Of a stretch of DNA of 64,000 bases, positions 3 through 58,929 are shown one piece after another. How positions within the stretch are numbered: the stretch's first letter is position 1; every line of letters starts with the position of its first letter. The translations under genes and the position numbers were made by a program. The stretch lies in NCBI GenBank assembly GCA_949373075.1, contig CASIBX010000017.1:628-64627 (forward strand), written 5' to 3'. The stretch comes from Candidatus Poseidoniaceae archaeon. GTDB taxonomy: Archaea > Thermoplasmatota > Poseidoniia > Poseidoniales > Poseidoniaceae. The notes under the pieces were generated by a model. That model was given only the letters and a program-made list of their open reading frames with translations. It searched no databases and was not told where the DNA came from.

Positions 3-1595
3 CGAAGAAGACTCGCTCTTCAGTTCGCGTTTTGGTTCGTTCTCCTAATGCTCCTTTCTACAGTTGTATCAAAGGTCATCAATGTCGGTAAAGACGAGGG
101 GCAATCTGCATACGGTGATGATTGGAATGACATGTCTGCATTCCGCCTAGATATCAACGAGATGGGGATTGAGACCAAATCCCTGGTTTCATCTCCTTTA
201 CTTCTCGCCGATATTGAGGATCCTGCTAATACTACGTTCATCATAGCAGGGGTGGAAAGAGATACAATTTCACTTCCTCAGTTTTCTTCTGACGGCTTCC
301 TAACCTTCGCTTCTGAAGATGGTTATTCTCCTGCCGAGGTAAATGCAATCAAGGAATTTGTATTTGCTGGAGGAGATGTTTTGGTTATGGATGATTTCGG
401 ATATTCATCATCGATTGCAGAATCATTTGGTGTTCGATTCAAAGGCGTTCAATTGTATGATACCGTCTATGTTACGGAATTAGATTACAACTTCGTTTGG
501 ATGTGTGTTCAAGAATCACCTTGTGGCATGGATGGTACACAATTAGATCCTAACACAGTAGAAAACCATAGCCGCTGGGCAATCTCTGACGGAGGCGCAC
601 ACATCTGTAAAGTGTATGATGGCAGGGCTATTGCCAAATCAGATGCTGGTGTTTGCGAGCAACATTGGAAAGATGGAGCGATTCAATACAATGCCTCCTA
701 CCAAGTCTTACTCAACAACATAACTGGCATCGATATACTTCCTAACACTAAGACTGGCATGGGTGCTACCCAAATCCGTTCTGTAACTTCTGCAGAAGCT
801 ACAATCGATGTAAACGGAGATGGTGAGATTTGGGTTGGTTCTGAACAAAATGCAGAGACTCCTGACCTTTGGGGTCAATTCAATCTGTCGATTGAAGTTT
901 GTATCTCACAGGATTGTAACTTCCGTGATGGAGGTAGGATTACTTTCATTGCAGATGGTTCTGCTCTGATAAATGCCCTCTATGATTACGAAGGATACAA
1001 CGATGGCGATTATGGTAAAGCAGACAAACCAATTCCTGAAAACGACAATCGCAAATGGGCAATGGACTACATTGTAGATTCACTTGTCGACCCAGAAGCA
1101 ACAGGAGAGTCAGCAGATGTACCAGAAGTTGCACCTAATGCAATGGTAATATTTGATGAAAGCAGGCATATCCAGCCAAGTATTGCCTCAGAATCTTACA
1201 ATACAATTTACTTCCTTTTGGTTTACTTTACTGGTGAAGGATTAGCAATGCTTCTCTTATTCATTATCTTGTTCATAACATTTGAAGGTGTACTTCTCAA
1301 GAAGAAAGACCCAGAGCCTTGGCGTCACGTATTCAGCATAATTTACTATGGATTTGGTGATGCTAATCGATATACATATTATGCTAAATCGAATAAAATC
1401 AAACAAGTATTCCTTTCCAAGGTTAGAAACCAGAATGGATTGAGTAGAGAAGAGTTCGATTCACTTCCTGCAAGGGATTTGCAGGGAATGATTTCAGATC
1501 CTGTATTGGTTAAATTCGTATTTGAAAACCGTAATTATTCATTAGAACAGACCGTAGCAATTGTGAAACGAATTAAGGTCTGGGGACGAACCTGA
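3..1595 (+). CDS. DUF4350-like membrane-anchored protein, 5' end lies outside the window
   Basis: The frame is open from nt 3. RRRLALQFAFWFVLLMLLSTVV forms a TM helix upstream of the tracked ATG at 48, so the gene starts before the window. FVFAGGDVLVMDDFG and MVIFDESRH resemble DUF4350 proteins. A C-terminal TM helix is followed by a cytoplasmic tail. The gene sits 6 nt upstream of a DUF58 gene, as in MoxR-type operons. Confidence 0.5.
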   Translation, partial: RRRLALQFAFWFVLLMLLSTVVSKVINVGKDEGQSAYGDDWNDMSAFRLDINEMGIETKSLVSSPLLLADIEDPANTTFIIAGVERDTISLPQFSSDGFLTFASEDGYSPAEVNAIKEFVFAGGDVLVMDDFGYSSSIAESFGVRFKGVQLYDTVYVTELDYNFVWMCVQESPCGMDGTQLDPNTVENHSRWAISDGGAHICKVYDGRAIAKSDAGVCEQHWKDGAIQYNASYQVLLNNITGIDILPNTKTGMGATQIRSVTSAEATIDVNGDGEIWVGSEQNAETPDLWGQFNLSIEVCISQDCNFRDGGRITFIADGSALINALYDYEGYNDGDYGKADKPIPENDNRKWAMDYIVDSLVDPEATGESADVPEVAPNAMVIFDESRHIQPSIASESYNTIYFLLVYFTGEGLAMLLLFIILFITFEGVLLKKKDPEPWRHVFSIIYYGFGDANRYTYYAKSNKIKQVFLSKVRNQNGLSREEFDSLPARDLQGMISDPVLVKFVFENRNYSLEQTVAIVKRIKVWGRT

Positions 1596-1601
1596 GGTGA
1601 T

Positions 1602-2858
1602 ATGATGTGGACTCGTAAAGCAGCATTTACTTTCACCGGTGGAATCGCATTGATTCTAATCGGTATGATGATTTCGAATCACCAGATGATGATTCTCGGT
1701 CTTGCATTTATTGCATTCATCGTAGTTAATTCATGGGTTAGTGGCCATGGTGATGTTGAAGTTCAGCGTACATTATCGGCTGATAACTTGTACAAAGGCG
1801 ACGACCTGTATGTCGAATTATTGGTAACAAACCGTAGTCGTAGAAAGACTCAGCAATTAGAGGTCTATGATAACGTTCCCCACGAGATGAAATTACGTAG
1901 CGGATTAAATCAAATGCGCCTAAACCTCAAGCCAGGAGAGAGCGCTAGGATACGCTATGTTCTACGTTGCCCACTTCGTGGCCATTATTCGGTTGGACCA
2001 GTATCTCTAAGGTACAGAAATACATTCAATCTATCAGTGGATGAGATGTATGTTGACCATCACTCTGACATTATCATCTTCCCACAAATAAGAGATGTTG
2101 AGGAAGCATTCATCCGTTCTAGAACTGCAAAGATGTATACTGGTGCTACAACTTTACGAACACCAGGGCCGGGTACTGAATTCTATTCTCTAAGAGAATA
2201 TGTACCAGGAGACCCGTTCAAGAATATCAACTGGAAGGCGTTTGCACGAACAGGTGAACTGATGATTAACGAGAAATGTCGAGATGCAGTTACCGATTTG
2301 TACATCATCCTTGATAGCAGAGATATTGCAAGAATAGGCACCGTTTTGAAAAATCCATTAGAGATGGGCACGGTTGCGGCAGCAAGTTTAGCATCGTTCT
2401 TTATTCAGCGGCGTGATTCGGTATCCCTGACAATATATGATGAAAAATTGTCATTCTTACCCCCTGATACTGGAGATAAGCAGTATTTCAAGATATTATC
2501 CTCTCTTGCAGGTGTTGCTCCAAGAGGAACAATGCCATTACAGGCAGTAACAAACAGTCTTGCAGCTAGATTTAGTCGAGGCAGTCCGGTATTCATCATC
2601 TCATCTTGTGAGGGTGACGGAACGGTACCTTCTGCAGTTCGAGACCTAGTTGGTCGTGGCCATGAAGTAACAGTCCTCTCACCTTCATCAATAGATTTCG
2701 AGCGTTTGGTAAGTCGTATTCCTAGAATGTCTTACGAAGTTCTCAAAATCGAGAGGCAAAACAGACTAACATCCTTGGCCGGATTTGGCAGCCAAGTAAT
2801 AGATTGGATGCCAGACATGGATCTTTCCCAAGCATTGTTGCAAGTAAGAGGATACTGA
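1602..2858 (+). CDS. DUF58 domain protein (vWA-like, MoxR-associated family)
   Basis: Two N-terminal TM helices, then the DUF58 hallmark LREYVPGDPFKNINWKAFARTGELMINE. A GAGGTGA Shine-Dalgarno motif lies just upstream. Confidence 0.75.
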   Translation: MMWTRKAAFTFTGGIALILIGMMISNHQMMILGLAFIAFIVVNSWVSGHGDVEVQRTLSADNLYKGDDLYVELLVTNRSRRKTQQLEVYDNVPHEMKLRSGLNQMRLNLKPGESARIRYVLRCPLRGHYSVGPVSLRYRNTFNLSVDEMYVDHHSDIIIFPQIRDVEEAFIRSRTAKMYTGATTLRTPGPGTEFYSLREYVPGDPFKNINWKAFARTGELMINEKCRDAVTDLYIILDSRDIARIGTVLKNPLEMGTVAAASLASFFIQRRDSVSLTIYDEKLSFLPPDTGDKQYFKILSSLAGVAPRGTMPLQAVTNSLAARFSRGSPVFIISSCEGDGTVPSAVRDLVGRGHEVTVLSPSSIDFERLVSRIPRMSYEVLKIERQNRLTSLAGFGSQVIDWMPDMDLSQALLQVRGY

Positions 2859-2867
2859 GGCGATAAT

Positions 2868-4016
2868 ATGGCAGGAGAAGTAACCCCACAAGGAGAAGGA
2901 GCACGTTCCCTTCATCTGCGTAAGTTACGCGTCCAATGGCAAATCGTGACTCTTCAGGTTCTTGCGACCTTATCCTTAGTTTGGATGTATATGGAAGTCG
3001 TATCTACCTATGTTGTAGGTAGTATTGACCATACTCAACTGTTTGATACTCTTGAATCTGGTTTGGGCACAGAACTGCCACTAGGTGACTGGCTAACTGG
3101 AGGCGGAAACGAAGGTTTAGCCCGATTTTATGTTCCTATGGGATTAGGATTAGGTCTAGGAGGGGCGATGGCATTACTGGCTTTCCAAACTCCTAAGTTC
3201 CAACAACGTGTAAAATTGGGATTCATCATTGGTTTGATTGCAATATTAGCTGGGAGATTTGTATTAGGATACGCTTGGCAACTCGTTAGTGATGGTTGGA
3301 GTGCTCCAGGTAATAACGTACTTCAACTACTCGAATGGCCTTTGTTGATGATGTTGTCTTTCATCATCATGACATTCTATCTTTTACCAATAATAACTGG
3401 AACTAAGGGAATTTGGGGATTATCTCGCAGAGGTGTAGCCTGGTCGATAGGTTTCACTTTGCTATTCCTTGGAGTACACGCAATTCTTACTTTCCCACTT
3501 ATCCGTTCACAGTTAGGAAGTTACGGTTCACAACTCACTACTTTGGAGATTATCGTATCGGAGCCTACTGTATTCGGCCTCGTTACTGCTCAACAATTCT
3601 CATTGATACTAATCGCTTGTTTGATGATGGTTTTCCAAGAATCTGCATTTGGCGTAATCCGCCAATTAGAGTATGCTTACCGCCTTCCAGAGTCTTGTAA
3701 GAGAGACCCTGAATACGTGTCGCAAATGGACAATCTTCTGAACGGTCATCTTCGACATACCGCTATATTCCTTTCACTTACAGTTGTGGCGACTACTATC
3801 GCATTAGGTTTCCATGCAGTATTATTAGATTGGGTAAATGGAATTACAGGTTCACAATGGGCAGCGCAGGTTGGGGAATCGATTGAGTTGACTCTAACAT
3901 ACGGTCTTGTAATCTCTGCTTTGCTATTCTTAGGAATAATGGCCCTTCTGCGCTTTATTGTGCCGTGGCAAAGGTTCTGGGGATTAATCGAATCATCATT
4001 CACTACTCGTGAGTAA
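2868..4016 (+). CDS. polytopic membrane protein of unknown function (third gene of the DUF4350/DUF58 cluster)
   Basis: 382-aa ORF with many hydrophobic helices. A GAGG motif lies 8 nt upstream of the ATG, and the gap to the DUF58 gene is 9 nt. Confidence 0.6.
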   Translation: MAGEVTPQGEGARSLHLRKLRVQWQIVTLQVLATLSLVWMYMEVVSTYVVGSIDHTQLFDTLESGLGTELPLGDWLTGGGNEGLARFYVPMGLGLGLGGAMALLAFQTPKFQQRVKLGFIIGLIAILAGRFVLGYAWQLVSDGWSAPGNNVLQLLEWPLLMMLSFIIMTFYLLPIITGTKGIWGLSRRGVAWSIGFTLLFLGVHAILTFPLIRSQLGSYGSQLTTLEIIVSEPTVFGLVTAQQFSLILIACLMMVFQESAFGVIRQLEYAYRLPESCKRDPEYVSQMDNLLNGHLRHTAIFLSLTVVATTIALGFHAVLLDWVNGITGSQWAAQVGESIELTLTYGLVISALLFLGIMALLRFIVPWQRFWGLIESSFTTRE

Positions 4017-4220
4017 TTATCTCGAATAAATAGATTGGATTGTTCTTCCAATTCCCTCTGTTAATACTAATATCACTACAGGTAATACACAAATTCTAGT
4101 TAACCACAATGGTAAACCAGAAATGTAGTCTTGAAGCATAATTCCTCCATAGGCGGCAACAGCAATCAATCCAATGAATACTAATTTTTCAATCCACAAC
4201 GGGTATAGTGAATTCATCAA
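4017..4220 (-). CDS. small two-TM membrane protein, last gene of the Roadblock operon
   Basis: 67 aa with two hydrophobic helices. It starts 6 nt after the stop of the 1043-aa gene and is preceded by GAGGTGA (mRNA sense TGAGGTGAATTGATG). Confidence 0.5.
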   Translation of the reverse strand: MMNSLYPLWIEKLVFIGLIAVAAYGGIMLQDYISGLPLWLTRICVLPVVILVLTEGIGRTIQSIYSR

Positions 4221-4226
4221 TTCACC

Positions 4227-7200
4227 TCACAAGTCGATACCATCTAGTGAATCTTCGAGTTCATCTAGTGCTGAATCCGACGTTATCACTTCTTCAGGGT
4301 CACTACGCCTTTCCCATCTAGCATCTAGGCGAGCCAGTTCTTCTTCAAGAGTGGCCCTTTCATCATCCATAGAGACTACGCTCCCTTCTCCAGTTGCCGA
4401 TTTCTCATCTTCTTCTAGCGGCGTCGATAATTCTTCCCACTCCTCTGTAATTTCACTTACTTCAACAGCAACTGCGGATTCTTGGTCGATCAATTCCCCT
4501 CTCATTTGCTCGATGACTTTTTCATGGATAGGTTCCCTTTCACCAGCAGGTACAGAGTCTCTCTCGAATGGTAATAGCCCGTCACGCTTGAAGTCCCACA
4601 ATGCACCTCGTACTTCCCCATTGACGAAACCACTTGCGTCAAGTTGAGTTAGTAACTCTTCGAGTGCACTTGTAGTACCCTCTAGTTTAACTGCAGAACC
4701 AGCATCTCTCATATCTGATTCAAGGTGGATATCATCCAGTGCCTTCTGAATCAATGAACGAGTCTCTCGTGCTAATACTGGTAAAGATTCGGGGCGTCGT
4801 GTATTGTGAAGTAAAGCTTGCACTTGTTCGCTTGGTGCTCCTAATTTCTCCAATTGCTCGAGAACATTTCTAATTCTTCTAAGCATTGTAACCGAGCGGT
4901 CATAATCTTCTAACAGGTTTTCTAAATCTAGAACTAGGTTGGTTACTGTATCTCCGAGTTGATGTTCAAGCCTTTGCTGTACTGACCATCTAGCGAGTCC
5001 TCTCACCGCTCCCGCAGTCGCTGGTACTTGGCGTTCTAATAGAGACATTACTTCTGTTGAAAGAAGGTGTCTAGGTGTTGTTGCAACATGGTCGACACAT
5101 CCCTGTATGACTTGAAGTGCCCTTTCTACAGCTCTATCAAGTAAAGAAACAGAGTAACCCAGGTTACGTGCATGTTCCAATCTTTCAAGAACTGGTCCTA
5201 GTCCATCAAACTGTGCCCCATCCTCTAGCAAGGCCTGAGCAAGAGGTTCTTCAGACAATTTTGCTCGAAGTATCTCAGCTTCTTGGATGTCGCCAAGTGC
5301 TTCTTCATGGGCCACTGCGAGCGCTTCTGCTTGGTCCAATAGATTTGATAATTCGGCTTCTGCCTGTCCTCTTCTGGCACCTAGGTTTCCTAATTCTTTC
5401 AGTACCTGGCGTCTTTCATCCATCAGTTCACGCATTTCGGATTGAATCATTGCCGCACGGTTTTCTTGTTCGGTAAGTCTGACTCTATCTTCCTGAGTTC
5501 TTTCTCTTGATACTCTAGATTCAGCTTCGATTTGTCTAAGAGTCAATTGTGAATCATTTATTTTGGATTCTAGTTCGGAAAGTTCGCCTTGAGCTCTTCG
5601 GTGCTTATCGCGAGATGCCTCAACCTGCTCATCTATCATTCTCTGACGCCTTTGGTCATCATCAATTCTAGACCTAATACTGCTCAGTGTTGCAGAATAA
5701 GAATCAATATCGCTTGAGAGTGCAGCTTCTTTAGTAGCCATTTCCTCTATCTTGGCTGACAACTCTGAACTAGCCTTTGAGTCACCAAGAATCCTTGCAA
5801 GTTCTACTGCCCTTTCGCTCAGTTGGTGTTCTAATTCATTCACTCTCTTTGATAGGCGGTCACTTCTAGACTCAGAGTTCTCAGAGTTGGCCTGAGCCGC
5901 AGATAAATCTAGTTGCAATTGGTCAATAGTACGGTTGTAGCCTGTAATTTTGTCCTGAATATCTGATGTGTGACGATTTGCTTCTTTCGCATTGACCTTA
6001 GCGGCATTTTCAGATTGGTTCGCAGAATACAGAGCGACTTTCAATCCTGCAATCTCTTGTTTGGCCTCCGCTAATTGTAGATCAGATTTCTCTAATTTCC
6101 TTCGCAACCCATCATCGATTCCTGCAGTCTTCTCTATGCTTACTAGGCCTTCAGAGGGTGTTGCAATCGAGATGGCAAATTCTACTCGGGAGCGTTCTTT
6201 TCTTAGTTGGCTAAGTCCGATTTCGAATCCAAATAGCTGATTCATCGTCATTTTGAGTAAGTTTTGGCGGGATTCAGACCTAGTTCTTGTCGTGGCAAGT
6301 TCACTACAGAATGTTTCTAAGTTGAAATCTGGGACATTGCCTGACTCGGAACCAAGAATTGTTCCTACTGGAAGGCGATGTAATGACAGAACCCTTCGTG
6401 ATTCGCACAAAGCACTCATCGCATCTATCATTTTCATATTCCCTGGGGCTTGAATTGCAACAGGAACTCCCTTGACTAGAGCGATGCGTATTGCTTTGGA
6501 TGATTTGCCAGCAGATAATTGGCCAGTTAAGCTCTCTTCAACTGCGGTTGAAAGCATTGAGACAATCGCATCGGTTCCTCCTCTTCCTTCTCTAACAACA
6601 TGTCCGTCCGACAAAGCCTCTCCTTTGGAACCCATAGCGTCTATTTTACCATCCATCATGGCAGAGATTTGGTTGATTAGTCTTCCATGGTCAACATCTG
6701 CCTCTGTCCAAATAGCCAAAGCGACGTCACCTGCTTCTGCAAGAAGCAAAGCACCATCGCCGGTGTGTAATGTCCAATGGCCTTCGCCAGTTAATCCTAA
6801 ATCGCTTGCCATTGCTTTTCTGCCAGCTAGAGTTTCTCCGACCTGGGCTGCCAAAATATCAGGAGATGCTGGTAAATCTCCTGCATCATCAATCAGCATA
6901 CCGGAGTCTACTGCGATTCCACCTCTAACCTCAGGTCTTGAAACAAGATTAGAAATCACGGCAGACAGATCTCTGGAAAGTAAACGCTCAAGTGAGTCTT
7001 CAGCACCAATCAGTCCACGAATGTCTGCACTGTGCTCAAATGATTCAGGTAGTATTTCCGCAATCGCACCAAGAGCGGACTGTGACCACGATTTGGCAAC
7101 CAGTCGGTGCAATTCCACTTCTAATTCATCCAACCTGTCCTTGGCAGCAGCTCCACAGAGCAATACTTTGCCTTTGGCAGGTTCTGCAATCCATCCTACA

Positions 7201-7358
7201 ATGCGCCCAGCACGAACAATTCTGTGCCCGCTTGCAGTGGACCTTCGTCCAAGATATGTCGTAATAGCACCATTTTCAAATGGCATTATCGCTCCGTCAC
7301 TAACATCTATCTCGTCTTCAATTGGTATTCCGTATGGTAGATCGAACATATCCATCAC
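4227..7358 (-). CDS. large multidomain protein with Roadblock/LC7-like domain, PATAN (DUF4388)-like domain, long coiled coil and acidic C-terminal tail
   Basis: 1043-aa ORF. Residues ~121-236 (LSAVISNLVSRPEVRGGIAVDSGMLIDDAG...HWTLHTGDGALLLAEAGDVALAIWTEADVDHGRLINQI) match the Roadblock/LC7 pattern. Residues ~262-330 (LTGQLSAGKSSKAIRIALVKGVPVAIQAPGN...DAMSAL) resemble DUF4388/PATAN. Residues ~415-705 are heptad-like and E/R/Q/L-rich. The last ~80 aa are strongly acidic. No P-loop is present. The start overlaps the stop of the upstream Roadblock gene (TGATG). Confidence 0.7.
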   Translation of the reverse strand: MMDMFDLPYGIPIEDEIDVSDGAIMPFENGAITTYLGRRSTASGHRIVRAGRIVGWIAEPAKGKVLLCGAAAKDRLDELEVELHRLVAKSWSQSALGAIAEILPESFEHSADIRGLIGAEDSLERLLSRDLSAVISNLVSRPEVRGGIAVDSGMLIDDAGDLPASPDILAAQVGETLAGRKAMASDLGLTGEGHWTLHTGDGALLLAEAGDVALAIWTEADVDHGRLINQISAMMDGKIDAMGSKGEALSDGHVVREGRGGTDAIVSMLSTAVEESLTGQLSAGKSSKAIRIALVKGVPVAIQAPGNMKMIDAMSALCESRRVLSLHRLPVGTILGSESGNVPDFNLETFCSELATTRTRSESRQNLLKMTMNQLFGFEIGLSQLRKERSRVEFAISIATPSEGLVSIEKTAGIDDGLRRKLEKSDLQLAEAKQEIAGLKVALYSANQSENAAKVNAKEANRHTSDIQDKITGYNRTIDQLQLDLSAAQANSENSESRSDRLSKRVNELEHQLSERAVELARILGDSKASSELSAKIEEMATKEAALSSDIDSYSATLSSIRSRIDDDQRRQRMIDEQVEASRDKHRRAQGELSELESKINDSQLTLRQIEAESRVSRERTQEDRVRLTEQENRAAMIQSEMRELMDERRQVLKELGNLGARRGQAEAELSNLLDQAEALAVAHEEALGDIQEAEILRAKLSEEPLAQALLEDGAQFDGLGPVLERLEHARNLGYSVSLLDRAVERALQVIQGCVDHVATTPRHLLSTEVMSLLERQVPATAGAVRGLARWSVQQRLEHQLGDTVTNLVLDLENLLEDYDRSVTMLRRIRNVLEQLEKLGAPSEQVQALLHNTRRPESLPVLARETRSLIQKALDDIHLESDMRDAGSAVKLEGTTSALEELLTQLDASGFVNGEVRGALWDFKRDGLLPFERDSVPAGEREPIHEKVIEQMRGELIDQESAVAVEVSEITEEWEELSTPLEEDEKSATGEGSVVSMDDERATLEEELARLDARWERRSDPEEVITSDSALDELEDSLDGIDL

Positions 7359-7696
7359 CTCATCACTGAGTTTAGCATTTCAACGTCACATTCTATGGCG
7401 TGTCGCCATCGGGCTATTCTGCCACCCTTCTTTCCAGAGACAATCAGACTTGCATCTTCACTCAATCTAGTGAGTAATACAGTCTCATCTCCTTCAGACC
7501 ACAATTCCAAACCCCTGCCTACGCTCTGAACTTTAGCTAGCGTTTCTAGGGCTTGTACTATCTGGGTGGCATATTCAACCTTTGGCGTTCGTCCTCTTTT
7601 TCCTACTGCGGCAACCAAGCCATCTCGTCTTGAGATGATGTATGCTTGGTCTGCCCCTGGTAGGGTAGAGAATCCGGCCAGAATACGTTGCATCAT
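7355..7696 (-). CDS. Roadblock/LC7 (MglB-like) domain protein
   Basis: 113 aa. LPGADQAYIISRRDGLVAA...ETVLLTRLSEDASLIVSGKK has the typical Roadblock/LC7 length and pattern. It is translationally coupled to the 1043-aa gene. Confidence 0.7.
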   Translation of the reverse strand: MMQRILAGFSTLPGADQAYIISRRDGLVAAVGKRGRTPKVEYATQIVQALETLAKVQSVGRGLELWSEGDETVLLTRLSEDASLIVSGKKGGRIARWRHAIECDVEMLNSVMR

Positions 7697-7752
7697 GCGC
7701 GCTCAAGTGCCTTCAGGTTGAAACCGGCTTCAAGAAGTTTGGCTTTTTACAA

Positions 7753-7765
7753 CGCCCGTAGGGCG
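7753..7765. promoter_or_regulatory. GC-rich hairpin CGCCC-GTA-GGGCG (CCCGTAGGG core) in a divergent intergenic region
   Basis: A perfect 5-bp inverted repeat with a 3-nt loop, read directly from the sequence. It lies between the Roadblock operon (minus) and the tRNA thiolase gene (plus). Confidence 0.35.
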
Positions 7766-7904
7766 GTTTGTGCAGTGGATTGATTTTGCCAACTGGTTTT
7801 TGTATTGTCATATTCAAACATGTGATTCATTCTAATTGGAAATTTGATTTTTCAATTGCTTTATTCAACCGTTTACATCAAGCCAAGAACCTCGTCGAAC
7901 AATC

Positions 7905-8861
7905 ATGGCCGACCTGTTTGAAGTCCCGAGTTGCGACAAGTGTCGTAATCCGGCAATTCATCATCAGATTTATTCAGGCCGGGTCATGTGTGGATCTCAC
8001 CTTGCAGATAGCGTGAGAAAGAAAGTATCCAAAGCACTTCGTGAGCAATTAGTAATCCCTCGTGACAAGAAAACCACGATTTTAGTTGCTATCTCAGGGG
8101 GTAAGGACTCTGCAGTTCTTCTTGAAAGAATACATGAGAATTTAGGAAAACGTCGCGATGTCACTATTGTCGGAGGTTGTGTCGATGAAGGAATAGAGGG
8201 CTATCGCCCACCATCGCTAGAATGCGCTCGTGAATTATGTGAAAGTTTAGGAGTTAGATTTGAAACGGTTTCTTACCCAGAGTTAGGTTTCAAAGAAATG
8301 GATGATGTCGTGCAGAAGATTGCCGAAACGAATGATAGCAAAACACCTTGCTCCTATTGTGGAGTATTTCGCAGACAGGGAATCAACCATCTAGCTAGAA
8401 GAGTCGGAGCAGACGTTATTGCTTTAGGACATAATTTAGACGACATGGCTCAAACGATTATGATGAATATGCAAAATGGAGATTTGGAACGCACCTTGCG
8501 TTTAGCACCTCACACAAGTACGCCTCTCGAAGGGATGGCGCCAAGAATCGTTCCTTTACGCTGGGTTCCAGAGCAGGAAATCCACCTTTATGCGATCCAC
8601 AAGAATCTGCCAATTCATCACGAGGAATGCCCGCACGGAGAAGGAGCTCTAAGATTCCGTCATCGCGACACAGTCGCTATGATGGAGGCCGATGTTCCAG
8701 GAACCCGTCATGGGTTACTTCGAATGGCAGATGAAGTCAAAAAGTTGCACGCTAAAGCGGGCGGTGAAAGTAAGTCTACTCCAATTAATTGTCCTGAATG
8801 TGGGCAAATGTGTAGCGGAACGATTTGCAAGGCTTGCGAGATGAAGAGCATCATGGAGTAA
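7905..8861 (+). CDS. TtuA/Ncs6-family PP-loop ATPase (tRNA 2-thiolation enzyme)
   Basis: N-terminal CDKC...C..H zinc finger. PP-loop motif ISGGKDSAV. Putative Fe-S ligand motifs PCSYCG, GHNLDD and ECPH. C-terminal CPECG...C..C zinc finger. The architecture is the same as Pyrococcus TtuA. Confidence 0.8.
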   Translation: MADLFEVPSCDKCRNPAIHHQIYSGRVMCGSHLADSVRKKVSKALREQLVIPRDKKTTILVAISGGKDSAVLLERIHENLGKRRDVTIVGGCVDEGIEGYRPPSLECARELCESLGVRFETVSYPELGFKEMDDVVQKIAETNDSKTPCSYCGVFRRQGINHLARRVGADVIALGHNLDDMAQTIMMNMQNGDLERTLRLAPHTSTPLEGMAPRIVPLRWVPEQEIHLYAIHKNLPIHHEECPHGEGALRFRHRDTVAMMEADVPGTRHGLLRMADEVKKLHAKAGGESKSTPINCPECGQMCSGTICKACEMKSIME

Positions 8862-10631
8862 TCAAACTCTTCGTCTAAGCTTCTCCATGAAGCCATCTGC
8901 TAATCCGAGTGATTCTAACGCTTCATCTATTCTTCCGACTTTGTGAGCCTCTTGTGCTAGGCTAATCGCTTCTTCAGTAGAACGTCTTTCTTCATCGTCA
9001 ACCTTTATTCCACTAGCATTGCATTGATTTCGTAATGTCTTCCATTCGTCCAAAACGAATTCTAATAATTCACTGGCTTCATCACTGGATTTCCCTTCTG
9101 TATCTAGGTCTTTAGTGAGTCTTCCAAGTAGGGTAGCTGCATGTGTCCACTCAAGGGAATCTGCTGCGTTTTCAATCTCTATTAGGCGCCCATTCCAGTC
9201 GGATGCGTCTTCCCTTTCTAGCCATCGTGAAATCAGATGGACCTTTTGTCTAAGGGCTCGGCGTACAACATCCATCGCTTCTCTTTCAGCAATAATTTCT
9301 CTTACAATTCCATCTGCTAGGCCCTTGGCTTGGGCATGATCTCCTGAATCAAGTGCTGCTTCAGACCTCTCAAGTCGTTCTTCTAGAGAGCCTTTGTTGA
9401 TTCCATCTGCAGATTTCAATTGTCTCGCTGCTTTCTTTACTGAATCTTCTGCTATTTCCAACGCATCTCCCGATGCAGCCAATTGGTCAGGAATTACCAT
9501 TGCAAATTCATAGGCTTTCATCGGTTTCTCAGCATACAATTTCTTTCGAGCATCTGCTAGTAATTCTTCGAGGCTTTCGGGGGCATGCTCTGATTCAGCA
9601 AGTAATAGCGAACCCTCACTGATTGCGTTCTCAGCCTTCCCCCACCATTCGATAATTTCGTTAGCGCGCTTCTTGGCTTCTCGGAATAGAGATTCTCCTT
9701 CTCTTAGGCTTCCTAATTCGACTTCACGTTGCCCCATATCCCAAGCTTTACGTGGTCGCTTTACGACAGGAGCAATCTCTTCTGCTTGATTCACAGCATC
9801 TAATGAATCAGCCTTAATCGCTTCAACATCCCCTGCCAGAGAAAGTGAACGTTCAATGTCTTCTTCAGCCTCATCAAGTAACCTCATTCCCCAACTAGGG
9901 TCACGGTGACCTTCTTCCCTAGCAGTCATGACTAAACTGGCTGCTTGGTCCACAGCAGATCCTTGACTTTTGAGAAGTAGCATGTAATTTTCTAAAGCAT
10001 TTAATCTGATGTCGAACTCTTTGCGCATCGCTCTCTGATCGTCATTTCCAAACCAATCGGCTCCGGTAAGAACGATTCCAATGCTAAAGAATGCTATTTG
10101 GACGAAAGATGAATTGTCGTCAAAACTTGAAGTCGATAATAGGGATGCTGCTAATACACAACCCATCAGCCCCATCAATGCTCTAAATTTCATTACAGCG
10201 AGTCCACCTTGCAAGATTGTTCGACTCACGCGGAATAGTGCTAGGGATACTACCAGTAGCAAGCACATCCCAACCATTTGGGAAATATCTCCCTCTAATT
10301 GTGAGATTGCTATGACCGAAATCGGCAGCCAAGAAATTGTAGCTGCAGCGCCCACTCTGGAGCGCCCTTTCTTGTCCAGTACTCCAAGGTCTTGGACAAA
10401 AATCCCCCAAGCTAGTATGATTAACGGATATCCCAGACCCGTAATTAGGGGTCCGCCATCCATTGCAGATTGCAGTGCTGGCCAAGCAAGCCAAGTGGCT
10501 GCAATTAGTATGGTGAAGGCTGATGCACTTGCCAATCTTTCGATACTATCGAGTTGGCTTTTACTCTCAGCCTCGACAGCATCTTCCAGATTTACGAAGC
10601 CATCCATATTATATCCACCACGGTTAAGCAT
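8862..10631 (-). CDS. membrane protein with polytopic N-terminal half and long alpha-helical, acidic cytoplasmic C-terminal half
   Basis: 589-aa ORF with ~7 hydrophobic helices followed by ~380 aa of E/A/L/R-rich helical sequence. It starts 1 nt after the stop of the upstream 833-aa surface-protein gene. Confidence 0.6.
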   Translation of the reverse strand: MLNRGGYNMDGFVNLEDAVEAESKSQLDSIERLASASAFTILIAATWLAWPALQSAMDGGPLITGLGYPLIILAWGIFVQDLGVLDKKGRSRVGAAATISWLPISVIAISQLEGDISQMVGMCLLLVVSLALFRVSRTILQGGLAVMKFRALMGLMGCVLAASLLSTSSFDDNSSFVQIAFFSIGIVLTGADWFGNDDQRAMRKEFDIRLNALENYMLLLKSQGSAVDQAASLVMTAREEGHRDPSWGMRLLDEAEEDIERSLSLAGDVEAIKADSLDAVNQAEEIAPVVKRPRKAWDMGQREVELGSLREGESLFREAKKRANEIIEWWGKAENAISEGSLLLAESEHAPESLEELLADARKKLYAEKPMKAYEFAMVIPDQLAASGDALEIAEDSVKKAARQLKSADGINKGSLEERLERSEAALDSGDHAQAKGLADGIVREIIAEREAMDVVRRALRQKVHLISRWLEREDASDWNGRLIEIENAADSLEWTHAATLLGRLTKDLDTEGKSSDEASELLEFVLDEWKTLRNQCNASGIKVDDEERRSTEEAISLAQEAHKVGRIDEALESLGLADGFMEKLRRRV

Positions 10632-10632
10632 A

Positions 10633-13134
10633 TCAGAATCTCGGTCCCTTTCGAGATCTAACCCATCCTATTGCTAATGCTGCAACTAATACGATACCCA
10701 ATAATTCCATCGTACCAATGCCTGTGCCGGAATGGTATTCACTGGTAGAATGTTTTACAATCGTTTGATTCGTGTCATCCAAATAGGTTAAATCTACTGC
10801 AAATGTTTCAAACCAATCAAGGTCAATTTTAATCAAAACAATAGCGGTTGTATTTTGCGAATAACTGGATGGGCCAACTATGGATTCTACGCAGACATCA
10901 TCGCTGCAAACAATAAATTCGGTAGTGCTGGCTCCATTATTTTGAACAGTTACCCAAAACTGATTCATCCCGGGCTCTATTTCGGTTGAAGAACTTGTAA
11001 TGTCAATAATCTCAAGGTTTCTTGCGATTGGTGGCGAGATTGCAACACTTACCATACTACCTCCTATATTGCCACTTTCATCGTACCCATTTATCTTGAT
11101 TTGATGATAGCCAGTCCCCAGTTCTGGAAGTTCCCAAAATTGAACATCTAACCATGACAGTCCGGAATTTACTATTCCTTGATATTCAATTGAGAAATTG
11201 ATTTTGTCAATTGAAGAATGGTCATCAAAACTTTCGGTCAAGTTGAGTCTTATGTTGTCTCCTGGACTAAACATTGCGCCCGATGTTTCCCATTCCCCTC
11301 CTTCCTTTTGAAGTTCTAAAGATCCTAATATCACAGGTCCAGAATTATCGCTTAAACGGATTGTCCAATTCCCAGAAGTACTATGTCCTACATCATCGGT
11401 AACTTCTGCATTTAACCAGTATTCTATGGGGTTTCTTGCTTTGTGCCTTTCAGTAATATTGTCATTGATTGAATTAAGATTAGAGTCGACTACGAATGAA
11501 GTATGCAAAAAGTCGCCAGTATACCACCAGTCTTCTGATTTATTACTAGTCCAGTAAACGCGTAAATTCTCATCATGGTCATCGCCAACCATCAAATCCC
11601 AATCAAAAGCTCCCGGCTCAATTACTTGAACATCTGTACTTGCATTTATCCAAGGAGTGCCTGCATCAAGGACAAATGTCCCATTCCAAGAGTCTGAAAG
11701 ACCTCCCTCATCAGTACACGTAACCATCACAGAAATATTGGAATTCATCTCATAGGAAGAAAGGTTGACTCCATGGTTATCTACCAGCCCTGATATATTC
11801 CATGTGCAATCATGTATCGATAGTGGCTCGTCTTGGATTACAGCATCAAAGTCGTAAGATGTGTTTTCCCAAGGCAATGCATAACCTTCTGCCATAGACA
11901 CTTCTGGTGCATTATTTTGGCCCAATGTGATGGTATAGTATCCTGAAACTGAAGATTCATCTCGTAGAAGAGTGAAGTTAGAACTTGAACCATCTATCCA
12001 CTCTTCTAGTGGACTTGAAAGATATTGCCAATCCCCATCTGTGGTAATAGTGAGCGGCGTAGTTTGCCTCAGGTCATTCTGGAAAGGTATTTCCAATCTG
12101 AGCAAGTTAATATTTGAACGAGATGCTGTGATTGTCCCAGTTTCATCCCAACCCCAAGTTCCTGTTGATAGGTCTATCTCAGCATCGATACTAAAATCTG
12201 AGAACGTTACTGCATTGTCATCAATAATACAACACAAAGCTTCGCTTCCAGTAATGTAAATCATAGTTTCAAGAAGGTTTTCTAATTCATTTACATCTCC
12301 ATTGAGGAATCGATTGACTTGACTATCAATGCCAGCCTGCACTCCAGGGATAAACGGTAATCCAAATCCATCACTGAACACGTGACTAGCAGTCCACAGC
12401 CCAGTAATGTCTTCATTTGGAGTTAAATTAGATGTAAATTCGAGATTGGCATTACCAGTAATCATCGAACTGTTTAGCTGTTCTCCAATCCAATCTGTAG
12501 TTGGAGGCCAAGAGGAATTACCTATAGGCAGTCCATTGAGTATAACTCTGGCAGACCATCCTCCTCCAAATTCCCCAACCGTCAAATTCCCATCTACCCA
12601 ATTCACGATTTCTCCAGAGCCTGTATGCGATGCGATAACAGAAACATCATCTGAAAAATTACCGCTTAGATTGTAGGTAGTGGTGCCGTTTGGAATCGTG
12701 ATTTGGCTCTGGCCATACCTCATTTCGCTACCCCCATTTCCAATCACCAAGACTGGAACTCCATTGGGGGCATCGATTAAGCCGTCACTAACCGGTGAGG
12801 CCCAAGTACTACCCAATACCTGAATCGTGTGGGCTCCTTCTACGGTGAAGAGGCCCTCTATGATAGGATATGCTTCCAGAACAACCGTGGTTTGGGAAGT
12901 GGGAACTGGCGGATGCCACATTACTACGTATCCTTCACAAATGGCTCTCGGTTGATACATTGCTCCAACTGGCTCATCCAATATCCTTCCAGTCCAAGGC
13001 TCGCTTAAAGTGATGTCACAATCGTTGATAGGATTGCCAAAAGGGTCCTCGACTTCGATAGCCCAACCATTGTCCTCTTCAGCCAAAGTCGAAGGAATTA
13101 GTAGGAGCAAAACTAGTACTAGCACCCTTCGCAT
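10633..13134 (-). CDS. large secreted, C-terminally anchored surface (glyco)protein
   Basis: Signal peptide MRRVLVLVLLLLIPSTLAEE. More than 20 N-x-S/T sequons. C-terminal TM helix plus a basic tail (LLGIVLVAALAIGWVRSRKGPRF). No recognisable catalytic motif. Confidence 0.65.
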   Translation of the reverse strand: MRRVLVLVLLLLIPSTLAEEDNGWAIEVEDPFGNPINDCDITLSEPWTGRILDEPVGAMYQPRAICEGYVVMWHPPVPTSQTTVVLEAYPIIEGLFTVEGAHTIQVLGSTWASPVSDGLIDAPNGVPVLVIGNGGSEMRYGQSQITIPNGTTTYNLSGNFSDDVSVIASHTGSGEIVNWVDGNLTVGEFGGGWSARVILNGLPIGNSSWPPTTDWIGEQLNSSMITGNANLEFTSNLTPNEDITGLWTASHVFSDGFGLPFIPGVQAGIDSQVNRFLNGDVNELENLLETMIYITGSEALCCIIDDNAVTFSDFSIDAEIDLSTGTWGWDETGTITASRSNINLLRLEIPFQNDLRQTTPLTITTDGDWQYLSSPLEEWIDGSSSNFTLLRDESSVSGYYTITLGQNNAPEVSMAEGYALPWENTSYDFDAVIQDEPLSIHDCTWNISGLVDNHGVNLSSYEMNSNISVMVTCTDEGGLSDSWNGTFVLDAGTPWINASTDVQVIEPGAFDWDLMVGDDHDENLRVYWTSNKSEDWWYTGDFLHTSFVVDSNLNSINDNITERHKARNPIEYWLNAEVTDDVGHSTSGNWTIRLSDNSGPVILGSLELQKEGGEWETSGAMFSPGDNIRLNLTESFDDHSSIDKINFSIEYQGIVNSGLSWLDVQFWELPELGTGYHQIKINGYDESGNIGGSMVSVAISPPIARNLEIIDITSSSTEIEPGMNQFWVTVQNNGASTTEFIVCSDDVCVESIVGPSSYSQNTTAIVLIKIDLDWFETFAVDLTYLDDTNQTIVKHSTSEYHSGTGIGTMELLGIVLVAALAIGWVRSRKGPRF

Positions 13135-13234
13135 GTCTCCCTAGGGGACATCCATACCTCATCAAGCAAACGGCCTCTCGCGCCCATATGTTCATGGTCG
13201 GCATTGGCCCAACTCGCAGGGAAGGGGGAGCAAT

Positions 13235-14185
13235 ATGCCCGGAATCATCACCATGGACGACCTAACAAATGAGGAAATCATTTCTATTCTAGACGATGCA
13301 GAGCGGCTACTTCCTGTCGCTCGCGGAGAGATATATTTGCCACTGCTACAAGGGCGGATTCTTGGTAACTTATTCTTTGAGCCTTCTACTAGGACTAGAA
13401 TGTCATTCGAGACTGCAATGAAGCGTTTAGGTGGGGATGTTGTCAATCTTGGAGACGTAAAAACCTCCTCTGTAGTAAAGGGAGAAACTCTATTCGACAC
13501 CATTCAAATGGTCGATGGATATACCGATATTATTGCTATGAGACACCCTCGTCAAGGCGCGGCACAATACGCCTCAGATAGTGCTAGAGTTCCGATTATG
13601 AATGGCGGAGATGGTGCTGGCCACCACCCGACTCAAACAATGCTTGATCTTTTCACAATTAGAAAGTCTCACGGAACTCTTGAAGGATTAAACGTGGTCC
13701 TAGCTGGAGATTTGCGATATGGCAGAACCGTCCACTCCCTTTCACATGCTTTAGTCAGGTTTGGTTGCAACGTTACCTTTGCATCTCCGGATAGTCTTAG
13801 AATGCCAGAAGAGATTGTTAATGACCTTCGAGCACACGGTGGAGATGTTGTAGAAACAACTGAATTGCTTAATCAAATTGACACTGCTGACGTGATTTAT
13901 ATGACTCGAATTCAGAAAGAGAGATTCCCTGATGATGATGAATATACTAAGGTTGCTGGTGCTTACAAATTACATGCCAGGGACTTAGACGGAGCAAAAC
14001 CTGAGATGATAATTATGCATCCTTTGCCCCGTGTTGATGAAATCCATCCTTCGGTTGATGCTACAAGGCATGCAGCCTATTTCGAACAAGCGTTCAATGG
14101 TGTAGTAGCTAGAATGTCTTTGATGTGCTGGTTACTTGGAGTGACGGTACCTGAAGATATCAATTCAGCAGGAGGGGTTCTATGA
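13235..14185 (+). CDS. pyrB: aspartate carbamoyltransferase catalytic subunit
   Basis: Motifs FFEPSTRTRMSFETA, HPTQ and HPLPRVDEI. A GGGGGAG Shine-Dalgarno motif lies upstream. Confidence 0.95.
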   Translation: MPGIITMDDLTNEEIISILDDAERLLPVARGEIYLPLLQGRILGNLFFEPSTRTRMSFETAMKRLGGDVVNLGDVKTSSVVKGETLFDTIQMVDGYTDIIAMRHPRQGAAQYASDSARVPIMNGGDGAGHHPTQTMLDLFTIRKSHGTLEGLNVVLAGDLRYGRTVHSLSHALVRFGCNVTFASPDSLRMPEEIVNDLRAHGGDVVETTELLNQIDTADVIYMTRIQKERFPDDDEYTKVAGAYKLHARDLDGAKPEMIIMHPLPRVDEIHPSVDATRHAAYFEQAFNGVVARMSLMCWLLGVTVPEDINSAGGVL

Positions 14186-14658
14186 GTCAAGAAGCAAACA
14201 TGCGTCGAGTAACTGCGATTAAGAATGGTACTGTTATTGATCATGTACCCGCTGGAAAGGCTCTTTCAGTGCTCAAGATGTTAGGAATCGGAGGCAACAT
14301 GTCCAATCCTGTATCTCTTGTAATGAATGTACCATCAAAGAAGATGGGTGGTAAAGACATCATCAAAGTCGAGGATAGAGAATTGACTCAGAATGAACTC
14401 GACAGACTAGCGTTAGTCGCACCAGATGCATCGGTGGCTATTATTCGAGCCTACACTGTAGCAGAAAAATTAGAGATTAATCTAACTCAAGAGGTGAAAA
14501 ATGTTGCACGTTGCACATTCTCTAATTGTATTACAACTAATCATCGAGAACCACTACCTCATCGACTGGTAGTTACGAAGCGCGACCCTCTAGAATTGAG
14601 GTGCAGGTATTGTGGTAAGACACAAGATATCGAAGGCCTAGTGGACAACCTTCTGTGA
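14182..14658 (+). CDS. pyrI: aspartate carbamoyltransferase regulatory subunit
   Basis: ATGA overlap with pyrB. ~157 aa with the IKNGTVIDH motif and a C-terminal C..C...C..C zinc domain. Confidence 0.9.
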   Translation: MSQEANMRRVTAIKNGTVIDHVPAGKALSVLKMLGIGGNMSNPVSLVMNVPSKKMGGKDIIKVEDRELTQNELDRLALVAPDASVAIIRAYTVAEKLEINLTQEVKNVARCTFSNCITTNHREPLPHRLVVTKRDPLELRCRYCGKTQDIEGLVDNLL

Positions 14659-43130: not shown

Positions 43131-43469
43131 ATGTGGAGGCCAATATTGATTTATTCCGCGGTATTCACCGTTCTATTTGTTAGTCACATCATAGCAGCAG
43201 CAAAAGATTTACAACTAATTTTCCAAGTGATTGCAGCCTTGATAACAATTCAAACATTATTTGCAGGTTTAATTCTTCATTTACTCAGGGGAAATATTCT
43301 GCACGTTAGAGGTCCAGTCGTTGTTTTAAGCGCTGGTTTGGGATGGGCATATGCTGGTATGGAGGCTAGTTGGAATATACTACTGTGGGTGGTCTCGGCT
43401 ATCATGATACACATTCTAACTGAAAGAGGTTTGAAGTATGTCACACCCGTCGATGCAACTGATGGCTGA
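43131..43469 (+). CDS. possible small membrane protein (3 TM)
   Basis: The ORF is hydrophobic. It overlaps the Mrp gene start by 32 nt. No homology was recognised. Confidence 0.35.
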   Translation: MWRPILIYSAVFTVLFVSHIIAAAKDLQLIFQVIAALITIQTLFAGLILHLLRGNILHVRGPVVVLSAGLGWAYAGMEASWNILLWVVSAIMIHILTERGLKYVTPVDATDG

Positions 43470-51691: not shown

Positions 51692-52471
51692 ATGTCCGGC
51701 GCCGAAGACTCATTGGTGGTAGCAAAGGATTTAGGAAAAAGATACGGCGATTTTATTGCGCTTCATCCTCTTGATGTCAAAGTAAGTTCAGGAGAGTTTT
51801 TCGGAGTATTTGGTCCAAACGGAGCAGGTAAATCCACTTTCATCAAATTGTTGACTGGGCAATTACGACCTAGTATCGGGGCGGTAGAAGTCTTAGGAAT
51901 TAACGCTGCTAAAGATCCTCAAAAACTCAAAGCAAATATTGGAATTGTTCCTGAATCAGAATCTCCTCCTTCATATCTAACCCCAAGCGAATTTCTGCAT
52001 TTCGTTGGTAAACTTCGAGGAGTCGAGGATTTAGACAACAAGGTTGAACACTGGATGGACTGGTTTGGTCTCGATGAGAAGAGAGATACTATGTGTAAAG
52101 ATTTGTCAAAAGGACAACGCCAGAAAGTGATGCTCGCATCGGCATTTATTCACGAACCGAGATTACTATTTTTAGATGAACCATTCGCAAACTTGGACCC
52201 GATTTATCAGAGGAAATGCCGCCAATGGTTACTGGATATGGTGGCAAATGGTGGGACGATTTTCCTTTGTTCACACGTCCTTGAAATGGCGGAAAGAATG
52301 TGCAATAGGATGGCAATAATCAACAACGGTAAAGTCCTTGCAGCAGGAACTGTGAAAGGATTGAAGGAAAAAGAAAGCGAGACTCTGGAAGATGTTTTCA
52401 TTCGCTTAGTTGGCCATTCGATTGCAGAAGCTGAAAGATTGGGCGATGAAGGTGCAGACGAGGAGGAATAG
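51692..52471 (+). CDS. ABC transporter ATP-binding protein
   Basis: Walker A GPNGAGKST, signature LSKGQRQKV and Walker B LLFLDEP are present. Confidence 0.9.
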   Translation: MSGAEDSLVVAKDLGKRYGDFIALHPLDVKVSSGEFFGVFGPNGAGKSTFIKLLTGQLRPSIGAVEVLGINAAKDPQKLKANIGIVPESESPPSYLTPSEFLHFVGKLRGVEDLDNKVEHWMDWFGLDEKRDTMCKDLSKGQRQKVMLASAFIHEPRLLFLDEPFANLDPIYQRKCRQWLLDMVANGGTIFLCSHVLEMAERMCNRMAIINNGKVLAAGTVKGLKEKESETLEDVFIRLVGHSIAEAERLGDEGADEEE

Positions 52472-54758: not shown

Positions 54759-54817
54759 ATGGCGAAAGGTCATAACCGAGCGGAACCGTGTCTTGTCTGT
54801 TAGGGGAGGTTCTACGT

Positions 54818-56341: not shown

Positions 56342-56373
56342 AATCGCATAAATTAATGAAAGGGGGGAGATGA

Positions 56374-57393: not shown

Positions 57394-57408
57394 TTAGGAG
57401 GTGAGAAT

Positions 57409-58920: not shown

Positions 58921-58929
58921 GGTGGTAAA

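Follow-up and report, generated by a model that had tools for sequence, protein, structure and literature searches.

A 64,000-nucleotide (nt) stretch of DNA from a Candidatus Poseidoniaceae archaeon (contig CASIBX010000017.1, positions 628 to 64,627; hereafter the window) carries on its minus strand a cassette of three co-oriented genes, which encode a small protein of 113 amino acids (aa), a multidomain protein of about 1040 aa (the giant protein) and a tiny protein with two hydrophobic segments. The analysis showed that, by their modelled folds, the small protein and one internal domain of the giant protein are members of the Roadblock/LC7 superfamily, while scoring below the curated Pfam threshold, and that the cassette presents known domain types in an undescribed, lineage-specific architecture together with a conserved C-terminal domain without known relative. 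We put a probability of roughly 45% on a reading in which the cassette provides a membrane-associated scaffold or adaptor, a complex specific to the Poseidoniales lineage with the giant protein as its core.

Domain architecture of the three proteins

An earlier examination of the letters of this DNA (the sequence-only reading) had proposed a three-gene Roadblock operon, and all three open reading frames (ORFs) were found exactly where it had placed them, at 7355-7696 (113 aa), 4227-7358 (1043 aa when read from a GTG codon) and 4017-4220 (67 aa when read from a TTG codon). The starts of the latter two were revised. In ten of ten divergent full-length relatives and in 77 of 80 related loci, the first codon of the giant gene is an ATG equivalent to residue 4 of the 1043-aa ORF (MFDL...), and since the homologs begin at this residue, the giant gene is likely to start at ATG 7349 and to encode 1040 residues. 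ATG 4217, where the homologs of the tiny protein begin, is likewise the likely start of a 66-aa protein, with a 9-nt gap after the giant gene. The resulting features are collected in Table 1.

Table 1. Positions in the window of the cassette genes, their domains and junction motifs, the upstream conserved region and a pilus-type locus.
Feature	Position	Strand	Description
Gene 1	7355..7696	minus	113-aa stand-alone Roadblock/LC7-fold protein
Gene 2 (giant)	4227..7349	minus	1040-aa multidomain protein; ORF open from GTG 7358, homologs back ATG 7349
Gene 3 (tiny)	4017..4217	minus	66-aa protein, two hydrophobic segments; TTG 4220 would give 67 aa
Shine-Dalgarno (SD)-like GAGGTGA	7355..7361	minus	includes gene 1 stop codon; 5 nt ahead of gene 2 ATG 7349
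SD-like GAGGTGA	4222..4228	minus	overlaps gene 2 stop codon; 4 nt ahead of gene 3 ATG 4217
Domain 1 of giant protein (residues 26-99)	7053..7274	minus	small β-β-β-α-β-α domain, unclassified, marginal PATAN-like similarity; AlphaFold2 (AF2) model
Domain 2 (residues 125-233)	6651..6977	minus	internal Roadblock/LC7 domain; AF2 topology α-ββ-α-βββ-α, Foldseek
Domain 3 (residues 250-325)	6375..6602	minus	PATAN/DUF4388-like β-α-βββ-α-β domain; hhalign
Helical linker and coiled-coil stalk (residues ~359-690)	5280..6275	minus	strongest heptad signal at 442-564
C-terminal conserved domain (residues ~691-930)	4560..5279	minus	probably α-helical
Variable acidic tail (residues 931-1040)	4230..4559	minus	ends in conserved peptide, nt 4230-4271
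Conserved non-coding region upstream of cassette	7697..7796	minus	fixed spacing to ATG; putative dedicated cis-regulatory region
T2SSE ATPase with PilB3_C domain	54788-56341	plus	Pfam; type IV pilus/Tad-like locus 54788-59801
Two T2SSF platform proteins	56374-57393 and 57409-58920	plus	type IV pilus/Tad-like locus
Two small ORFs without Pfam match	58930-59367 and 59349-59801	plus	might be pilins

The model of the small protein, built with AF2 from 27 homologs, reached a pLDDT of 89.2 and displayed the topology α-ββ-α-βββ-α. When compared with the PDB by Foldseek, it matched MglB (6izw_C, TM-score 0.84, E 1.6e-7), and further matches were Asgard Roadblock proteins (7f8m, 9jue, 7yh1), LAMTOR2 and MglC (7ct3), so that the Roadblock/LC7 identity proposed from sequence is borne out by the modelled fold. 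The profile of the gene 1 family weakly matched the Robl_LC7 protein 7f8m over its full length (E 0.2), and Pfam Robl_LC7 was seen below threshold in 3 of the 27 relatives (best E 5e-3). Between the last strand and the C-terminal helix, residues 87-99 (nt 7398-7436) form a near-invariant, family-specific basic motif, SGKKGGRIARWRH. Pairing of this basic patch with the giant protein's acidic tail is speculative. The same motif was the source of WD40-like matches (Ika8, RACK1) in the profile search of the PDB, which were rejected as spurious because they reflect a single short motif, SGxxGGRIxxW, recurring along the propeller blades.

Residues 1-400 of the giant protein were modelled by AF2 from 14 sequences (pLDDT 83) and gave three domains, the second of which is predicted to be a Roadblock domain. 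The top 50 PDB matches of this domain by Foldseek were all of the Roadblock/MglB/LAMTOR type, with target-normalised TM-scores of 0.62-0.80 (0.68-0.80 for 9jue, 7f8m, 6hjm and 7yh1), and its sequence profile matched CvnB5 (3leq, E 8e-5, positions 135-236), followed by Rv3364c, 7yh1 and LAMTOR4. The topology of the model, the Foldseek matches and the profile match to 3leq thus agree with the Roadblock module that had been placed at residues ~121-236. Pfam Robl_LC7 was weakly seen in 4 of 17 giant-protein relatives (best E 6e-4). A Pfam scan of the 113-aa and giant window proteins at E<=1 gave no match and did not reach the curated Robl_LC7 threshold, and Pfam and NCBIfam scans of the three window proteins found no domain, returning only sub-threshold coiled-coil matches.

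A PATAN/DUF4388 domain had been suggested at residues ~262-330. We wrote a bait after the DUF4388 consensus (99.6 bits on PF14332) and used it only to fish real metagenome sequences; this yielded 40 loci, and ten of ten tested were bona fide DUF4388 proteins (36.6-88.5 bits). The synthetic bait gave nothing in a homologous-protein search or in a tblastn search against plasmids. In hhalign, a profile of 29 DUF4388 sequences aligned with residues 262-314 of the giant family (49 columns, score 26.6, P 2.5e-4, probability 43%), in register with helix 1, the three strands and helix 2 of the model. None of 300 column shuffles scored as high (null 10.8 ± 2.2, maximum 19.9), and the Roadblock domain, serving as a negative control, scored 18.5. 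Pfam DUF4388 (threshold 25 bits), on the other hand, did not match the window protein at E<=1 or domains 1 and 3 alone at E<=10 under conditions where the positive controls scored 36.6-99.6 bits. When 17 giant-protein relatives were scanned at E<=10, they matched 63 families, the 25 commonest of which did not include DUF4388, and no PATAN entry surfaced among the PDB matches of the N-terminal model, the list being filled by Roadblock proteins. The suggestion of a PATAN-like domain is thus supported by profile-profile comparison, at a level below that usually accepted for homology, and not by Pfam.

Domain 1 was tried as a second PATAN domain and rejected, as its hhalign score of 17.2 was reached by 2 of 200 shuffles and was no better than that of the Roadblock control; a comparison of domains 1 and 3 revealed no similarity. 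As a side observation, one of the fished genuine DUF4388 proteins (protein 4, from locus L097) weakly touched Pfam DUF2226 ('uncharacterized protein conserved in archaea', E 0.01), which suggests that some archaeal family may hold a PATAN-related region.

The sequence-only reading had also stated that none of the three proteins contains a Walker A motif, which is literally wrong: the string GQLSAGKS (nt 6501-6524; residues 279-286 of the 1043-aa ORF), within domain 3, fits GxxxxGK[ST] and is kept in 120 of 120 close homologs. In divergent homologs, however, the string is degenerate (GHVQSGSS, GHLSVGAG, GYINSTKK), and in the model it spans a strand-turn-strand, that is, a β-hairpin, and not a strand-loop-helix. 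On these two grounds it was rejected as a P-loop, and we do not consider it functionally meaningful. Neither a P-loop nor a Walker B or ABC signature motif is conserved in the giant family.

The head is followed by a helix (residues 359-386 in the AF2 model of the N-terminal part) and by a rod (residues ~400-690) that is almost without Pro and Gly, is highly charged and contains three stretches whose heptad scores exceed the 99th percentile of shuffles. Provided that the coiled coil is continuous, the stalk of ~280 residues would measure roughly 40 nm. Conservation is comparatively low in the rod (0.36-0.59 over residues 391-630), whereas residues ~630-930 are the best conserved in the family (majority fraction 0.57-0.80 vs ~0.5 in the head) and the C-terminal domain contains the invariant motifs LLDRAVER and VRGLxxWSVQ. 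A search of residues 686-940 against PDB sequences and Pfam gave no significant relative; the best match, FliS (E 0.018), was treated as helical-bundle noise. The last 110 residues average 31 acidic vs 7 basic residues, and the C-terminus itself has the form A-L-x-x-L-E-x-x-L-x-x-[LI]-[DE]-[LMFI], and 85-87 of 88 sequences retain its leucine positions; 73 of the 88 have an ELARLD-like motif in the tail. The long coiled coil, the helical region and the acidic tail of the sequence-only reading are approximately borne out by composition, heptad score and tail charge counts. It had missed, judging from conservation, the unclassified C-terminal domain, the best conserved part of the protein, and the terminal, docking-type peptide. 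A Pfam match of protein P0120 to PF24161 proved to be to CCDC39, a coiled-coil family, and was set aside.

The 66-aa protein has hydropathy peaks at residues 10-28 and 33-53. An N-terminal YPLWIEK-type motif is present in 75 of 80 loci, and a C-terminal TEGIGRxIQ motif is found as E-x-x-G-R in 74 of 80. In at least 73 of 80 loci the giant gene is followed by a short ORF with two transmembrane segments, which supports a conserved two-segment partner as the third member of the cassette.

Distribution, junctions and surroundings of the cassette

The closest proteins, of which 415 were found, come from metagenome-assembled genomes (MAGs) and single-cell assemblies of Candidatus Poseidoniaceae or Poseidoniales (Marine Group II), which agrees with the archaeal origin assumed earlier. 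When the N-terminal 400 residues of the giant protein were compared by phmmer with 1.84 billion cluster representatives, only 63 representatives were found; the full-length relatives have 1020-1089 aa, with identities down to 25%. A pattern scan of one genome per GTDB species showed that at least 291 genomes encode a relative of the giant protein. The relatives inspected are the best 80 of these 291 species-level genomes. All of them cover at least query residues 1-1032, except one on a contig that is cut short; apart from one evidently mis-binned contig, their labels read Poseidoniales, Poseidonia or unclassified euryarchaeote. Thus, since the best 80 relatives are all from Poseidoniales and near full length, the giant proteins constitute an order-restricted, widespread family with a single architecture. 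Two contigs labelled 'Phycisphaerae bacterium' (L006, NZFX01000057.1) and 'Flavobacteriales bacterium' (P0111) carry the cassette with 82-85% identity to the window protein, most likely as a result of binning contamination of public MAGs.

Of 81 loci, 79 have the small Roadblock gene immediately before the giant gene; the other two are on contigs that begin at or within the giant gene. Both accessory genes are also kept in L125 and apparently in the most divergent locus, L084 (25% head identity), where the tiny gene, with the same motifs, lies at 14578-14859; the upstream small protein of L084 displays only weak co-linear similarity to the Roadblock family (P 0.027). In this most divergent relative (L083/L084), the giant and tiny genes are separated by an inserted gene (13182-14567) for an FG-GAP/VCBS-repeat protein of ~450 aa that has hydrophobic segments at both termini. 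This insertion is consistent with an envelope-related role of the cassette and hints at a link to a cell-surface component.

With the revised starts, the two internal junctions of the cassette are similar, each with GAGGTGA at the upstream stop and an ATG after 5 or 4 nt. The strings on which the sequence-only reading had based its tight coupling, TGATG (7353-7357, at the gene 1/gene 2 junction) and GAGGTGA, are present as described, but the start codons behind them are now taken to be ATG 7349 and ATG 4217. The distance from the small gene to the inferred giant ATG is 4-11 nt in most loci, and the divergent relatives are arranged alike; taken together, the gaps within the trio mostly measure 4-9 nt. 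At junction 1 an SD-like motif (GGTG/AGGT/GAGG) is kept in 39 of 80 loci, the exact motif in the closer half only, and in the listed relatives that lack it the upstream stop still lies a few nt before the ATG. At junction 2 an SD-like motif is present in 69 of 81 loci.

Between the small gene and a divergent TtuA-like gene at 7905-8861 lies a non-coding block of ~100 nt, which aligned without indels across 75 distinct Poseidoniales loci. It has four invariant blocks, among them AGTTGG (7789-7794, in the dyad TCCAGTTGGA), AAACTTCTTGAAG (7728-7740) and TTGAG (7702-7706). The exact 13-mer AAACTTCTTGAAG occurs once per locus in 57 of 57 fetched related loci, ~44 nt before the small gene where checked. 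In addition to the dyad TCCAGTTGGA, the block contains a second one, CTTC-TT-GAAG (CTTCTTGAAG), and a GC hairpin or palindrome (7753-7765), the letters of which vary among loci while palindromy is kept (CGCCC-TAC-GGGCG, CCCCC-TTTA-GGGGG, CCCCCC-GTA-GGGGGG). A micro-ORF was rejected, as a 32-codon ORF is not preserved, and the block gave no Rfam family, no tRNA and no consensus RNA fold. The motifs are unique in the window, so a general promoter motif was discarded, and they are not repeated there beyond chance, as they would be in a replication origin with multiple origin recognition boxes. The most economical reading of this conservation pattern is that of a dedicated cis-regulatory region, perhaps shared with the divergent TtuA-like gene, in which the dyads are probably bound by transcription factors.

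Much of the wider region is syntenic across the order, including a TtuA-like PP-loop gene, pyrBI, DUF4350-DUF58-membrane genes, a PRC-barrel gene and CDC48. In the window, an operon of DUF4350, DUF58 and a 382-aa polytopic membrane protein (48-4016, plus strand) is convergent to the cassette, and the membrane-protein gene (2868-4016) and the tiny gene end on adjoining bases (4016/4017), leaving no terminator space between them. Relatives with as little as 25% identity have this trio in synteny with the PRC-barrel and CDC48 genes; DUF58 was not seen to adjoin a MoxR ATPase. On the other side (8862-13134, minus strand) lie genes for a 589-aa protein with N-terminal transmembrane segments and a helical, repeat-like C-terminus and for an 833-aa secreted protein with a C-terminal anchor. 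Neither has a Pfam match, and the pair is syntenic in L083 (581 and 1001 aa).

Proposed function and the GTPase question

In the scaffold or adaptor complex that we propose, the stalk would dimerise the giant protein and thereby pair two internal Roadblock domains, since Roadblock domains are dimers in all solved examples known to us. The small Roadblock protein would join this platform, either as a heterodimer partner, as in LAMTOR2/3, or as a second stacked dimer, as in MglB/MglC. In bacteria, PATAN genes are neighbours of MglA/MglB genes, and PATAN regulators are reported to interact with the type IV pilus motor (bioRxiv 10.1101/2021.06.11.447907). By analogy with these bacterial partners, the head with its Roadblock and PATAN-like domains might recruit or regulate a partner encoded elsewhere, either a small GTPase or a motor ATPase of the type IV pilus or archaellum type. 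The C-terminal domain and the terminal peptide would dock the rod to the tiny two-segment protein or to another envelope component, which would place the complex at the membrane. We think that the cassette proteins themselves do not hydrolyse nucleotides.

Several observations weigh against this reading. The trio stands together in most loci, as the proposal of an operon demands, but is not universal, with breaks in L126, L127 and L084. In L127 (5877-5993) the small gene is cut to a 38-codon ORF that still starts with MMQRMVASF, and the tiny gene is kept; in L126 (5772-5984) only a 70-aa remnant (MRRILL...) precedes the giant gene, and the tiny gene is absent. These short ORFs could be decayed genes kept as upstream ORFs for translational coupling, or the outcome of an assembly frameshift, L126 being from a Logan assembly. 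Since gene 1 is reduced and gene 3 absent in such deep lineages, neither accessory protein is indispensable in every lineage, which leaves the giant protein as the constant core element. The loss of gene 1 in one lineage favours self-dimerising internal Roadblock domains, with the small protein as an accessory. Furthermore, the conserved adjacency of the three genes is weaker evidence of a functional link because their surroundings are largely syntenic; the tight junctions and the shared SD arrangement are a better argument for co-expression. In hhalign, no similarity was detectable between the two Roadblock modules when the small Roadblock family was compared with the N-terminus of the giant protein, and the PATAN-like assignment of domain 3, at an HH probability of 43% and with no Pfam match, is supported but not proven. 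Both motifs of the tiny protein are predicted to be cytoplasmic by the positive-inside rule, from hydropathy and charge only. The presence of a type IV pilus/Tad-like locus in the window, a candidate target for a PATAN-containing regulator, speaks for the reading, but the locus lies 47 kb from the cassette. Finally, every functional step of the model is an inference.

The window contains six ORFs of at least 80 aa with a GxxxxGK[ST] string, and none of the six has an [NT]KxD motif. One of them is the giant protein itself; three that were covered by a Pfam scan proved to encode an M14 peptidase, a T2SSE secretion ATPase and an AAA_33/Zeta-toxin-like protein, and the remaining two lie at 43438-44463 and 51692-52471. 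ORFs combining the G1, G3 and G4 motifs of small GTPases were found neither in the 64-kb window nor at up to 10 kb from the giant gene in 82 related loci, and no GTPase family appeared in the precomputed gene lists of the inspected neighbourhoods. These results extend the claim of the sequence-only reading that the operon has no GTPase partner.

They also bear on the possibility that the Roadblock platform is an MglB-type regulator, that is, a GTPase-activating protein (GAP) or guanine-nucleotide-exchange factor for an unlinked Ras-like GTPase (MglA/Arf/Rup), with the giant protein localising the activity, e.g. at the cell pole. MglB is a Roadblock-fold GAP of the polarity GTPase MglA. Both cassette modules superpose on MglB of Myxococcus xanthus and Thermus thermophilus, including the C-terminal helix (target-normalised TM-score 0.73-0.77 for the internal domain), the best structural matches being MglB and GTPase-associated Roadblocks, and some JGI members of the family are named after COG2018, 'regulator of Ras-like GTPase activity'. 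A partner encoded elsewhere would have precedent, as 328 of 749 prokaryotic MglB homologs are 'orphans' without a linked MglA, none of which had been characterised as of 2014, and PATAN genes adjoin MglA/MglB genes in bacteria (PMC4316618). The cassette differs from MglB in that the identity is ~15-20%, no MglA-like gene is nearby and one copy of the module lies inside a 1040-aa coiled-coil protein. In addition to the lack of a small-GTPase-like ORF in the loci searched, Roadblock folds also serve in GTPase-independent settings, such as dynein LC7 (among our matches as 3l7h and axonemal chains) and the protease inhibitor Rv3364c. We regard an MglB-type regulator as unlikely, if still worth serious consideration.

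Another possibility is a GTPase-independent positioning system peculiar to Marine Group II archaea, in which a rod of ~40 nm, held at the membrane by its C-terminal domain or terminal peptide and the tiny two-segment protein, carries a Roadblock and PATAN-like head that directly recruits or gates a type IV pilus- or archaellum-type motor or another envelope machine. We consider this system a rather unlikely explanation; if it is true, the cassette would be an unrecognised archaeal module for polarity or organelle placement, using Roadblock and PATAN domains without a Ras-like switch.

The heptad-rich rod of ~280 residues between non-helical head and tail regions, as well as the high conservation within one order, would also suit a self-assembling cytoskeletal or filament protein, similar to crescentin or intermediate filaments, in which the coil polymerises and the head and tail modulate assembly. 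In the giant protein, however, the rod is less conserved and the globular C-terminal domain is the best conserved part, which points to specific partner binding, and we find a filament protein doubtful.

The internal Roadblock domain had its best sequence-profile match in CvnB5, which raises the question of a conservon-type signalling module. Conservons are actinobacterial modules in which a CvnB-like Roadblock protein is encoded with a sensor kinase, a DUF742 protein and a GTPase. The fold match is equally good to MglB and the Asgard Roadblocks, no histidine kinase, DUF742 or GTPase gene was found in the inspected neighbourhoods, and the cassette neighbours are instead the TtuA-like PP-loop, DUF4350, DUF58, membrane, PRC-barrel and CDC48 proteins, making a relative of CvnA-D very improbable.

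An SMC/Rad50-like chromosome protein with cryptic ATPase heads, which the sequence-only reading had named as a finding that would overturn it, is refuted by the missing defining motifs: NCBIfam SMC/Rad50 models match residues 384-693 of the 1043-aa ORF (best E 1.7e-11) and a literal GxxxxGKS string exists, but the matches concern the coiled-coil arms only, with 42.6 and 34.6 bits far under the cut-offs of 567 and 729, the motif counts among 17 members are 7 for a Walker-A-like string, 1 for Walker B, 0 for the ABC signature and 0 for the CxxC hook, and the N-terminus folds as a Roadblock and small β domains and not as an ABC head, so that the protein shares with SMC/Rad50 the long heptad-rich arm and lacks the ATPase head motifs, the hinge and the zinc hook. 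Thus, with no cognate Ras-like GTPase gene within a few genes of the cassette, the system is not a coupled MglA/MglB module, and it is neither a conservon nor an SMC.

Relation to known systems and significance

The Asgard Roadblock proteins (7f8m, 7yh1, 9jue) are archaeal, have the same fold and are top Foldseek matches for both modules, and 7f8m and 7yh1 also appeared in the sequence-profile searches. Their PDB chains are short (80-121 residues), whereas the cassette family is fused to PATAN-like, coiled-coil and novel C-terminal modules and occurs in Poseidoniales only. The Ragulator/LAMTOR complex resembles the cassette in having several distinct Roadblock modules and a small membrane-associated subunit, and LAMTOR2, LAMTOR3 and LAMTOR4 were among the matches. 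Ragulator is eukaryotic, its Rag GTPase partners are bound by way of their own Roadblock domains, and a lipidated subunit serves as anchor in place of a protein with two transmembrane segments. As in the cassette, two different Roadblock proteins belong to one system in the MglB-MglC polarity module of Myxococcus (PMC9481161), which is bacterial and centred on a GTPase; MglC (7ct3) was among the gene 1 matches. With PATAN/DUF4388 proteins such as PatA and PixG (PF14332), the likeness is confined to an alignment over about half of the domain, and the cassette has no receiver domain.

No description of the giant family or of the cassette was found in the searchable literature, in accordance with the sequence-only reading, to which the combination was not a characterised system. 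The existing label of the family members is 'hypothetical protein', apart from the few JGI records with the COG2018 name. A search of a viral structure library gave nothing useful. A point of method follows from the domain searches: standard Pfam and NCBIfam annotation is blind to the domains of this cassette.

The Poseidoniales are among the most abundant archaea of the surface ocean, and their cell biology is almost wholly obscure, as they are represented here only by MAGs and single-cell assemblies. Roadblock and PATAN are domain types that bacteria use with small GTPases to control polarity and type IV pili, and in the Poseidoniales a nearly order-wide protein of a single architecture combines a Roadblock domain, a PATAN-like one, a long rod and a conserved C-terminal domain in one chain. 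If a GTPase partner exists elsewhere in the genome, the cassette would extend MglA/MglB-like polarity control to planktonic Thermoplasmatota; if no such partner exists, it would represent Roadblock and PATAN modules acting without a switch.

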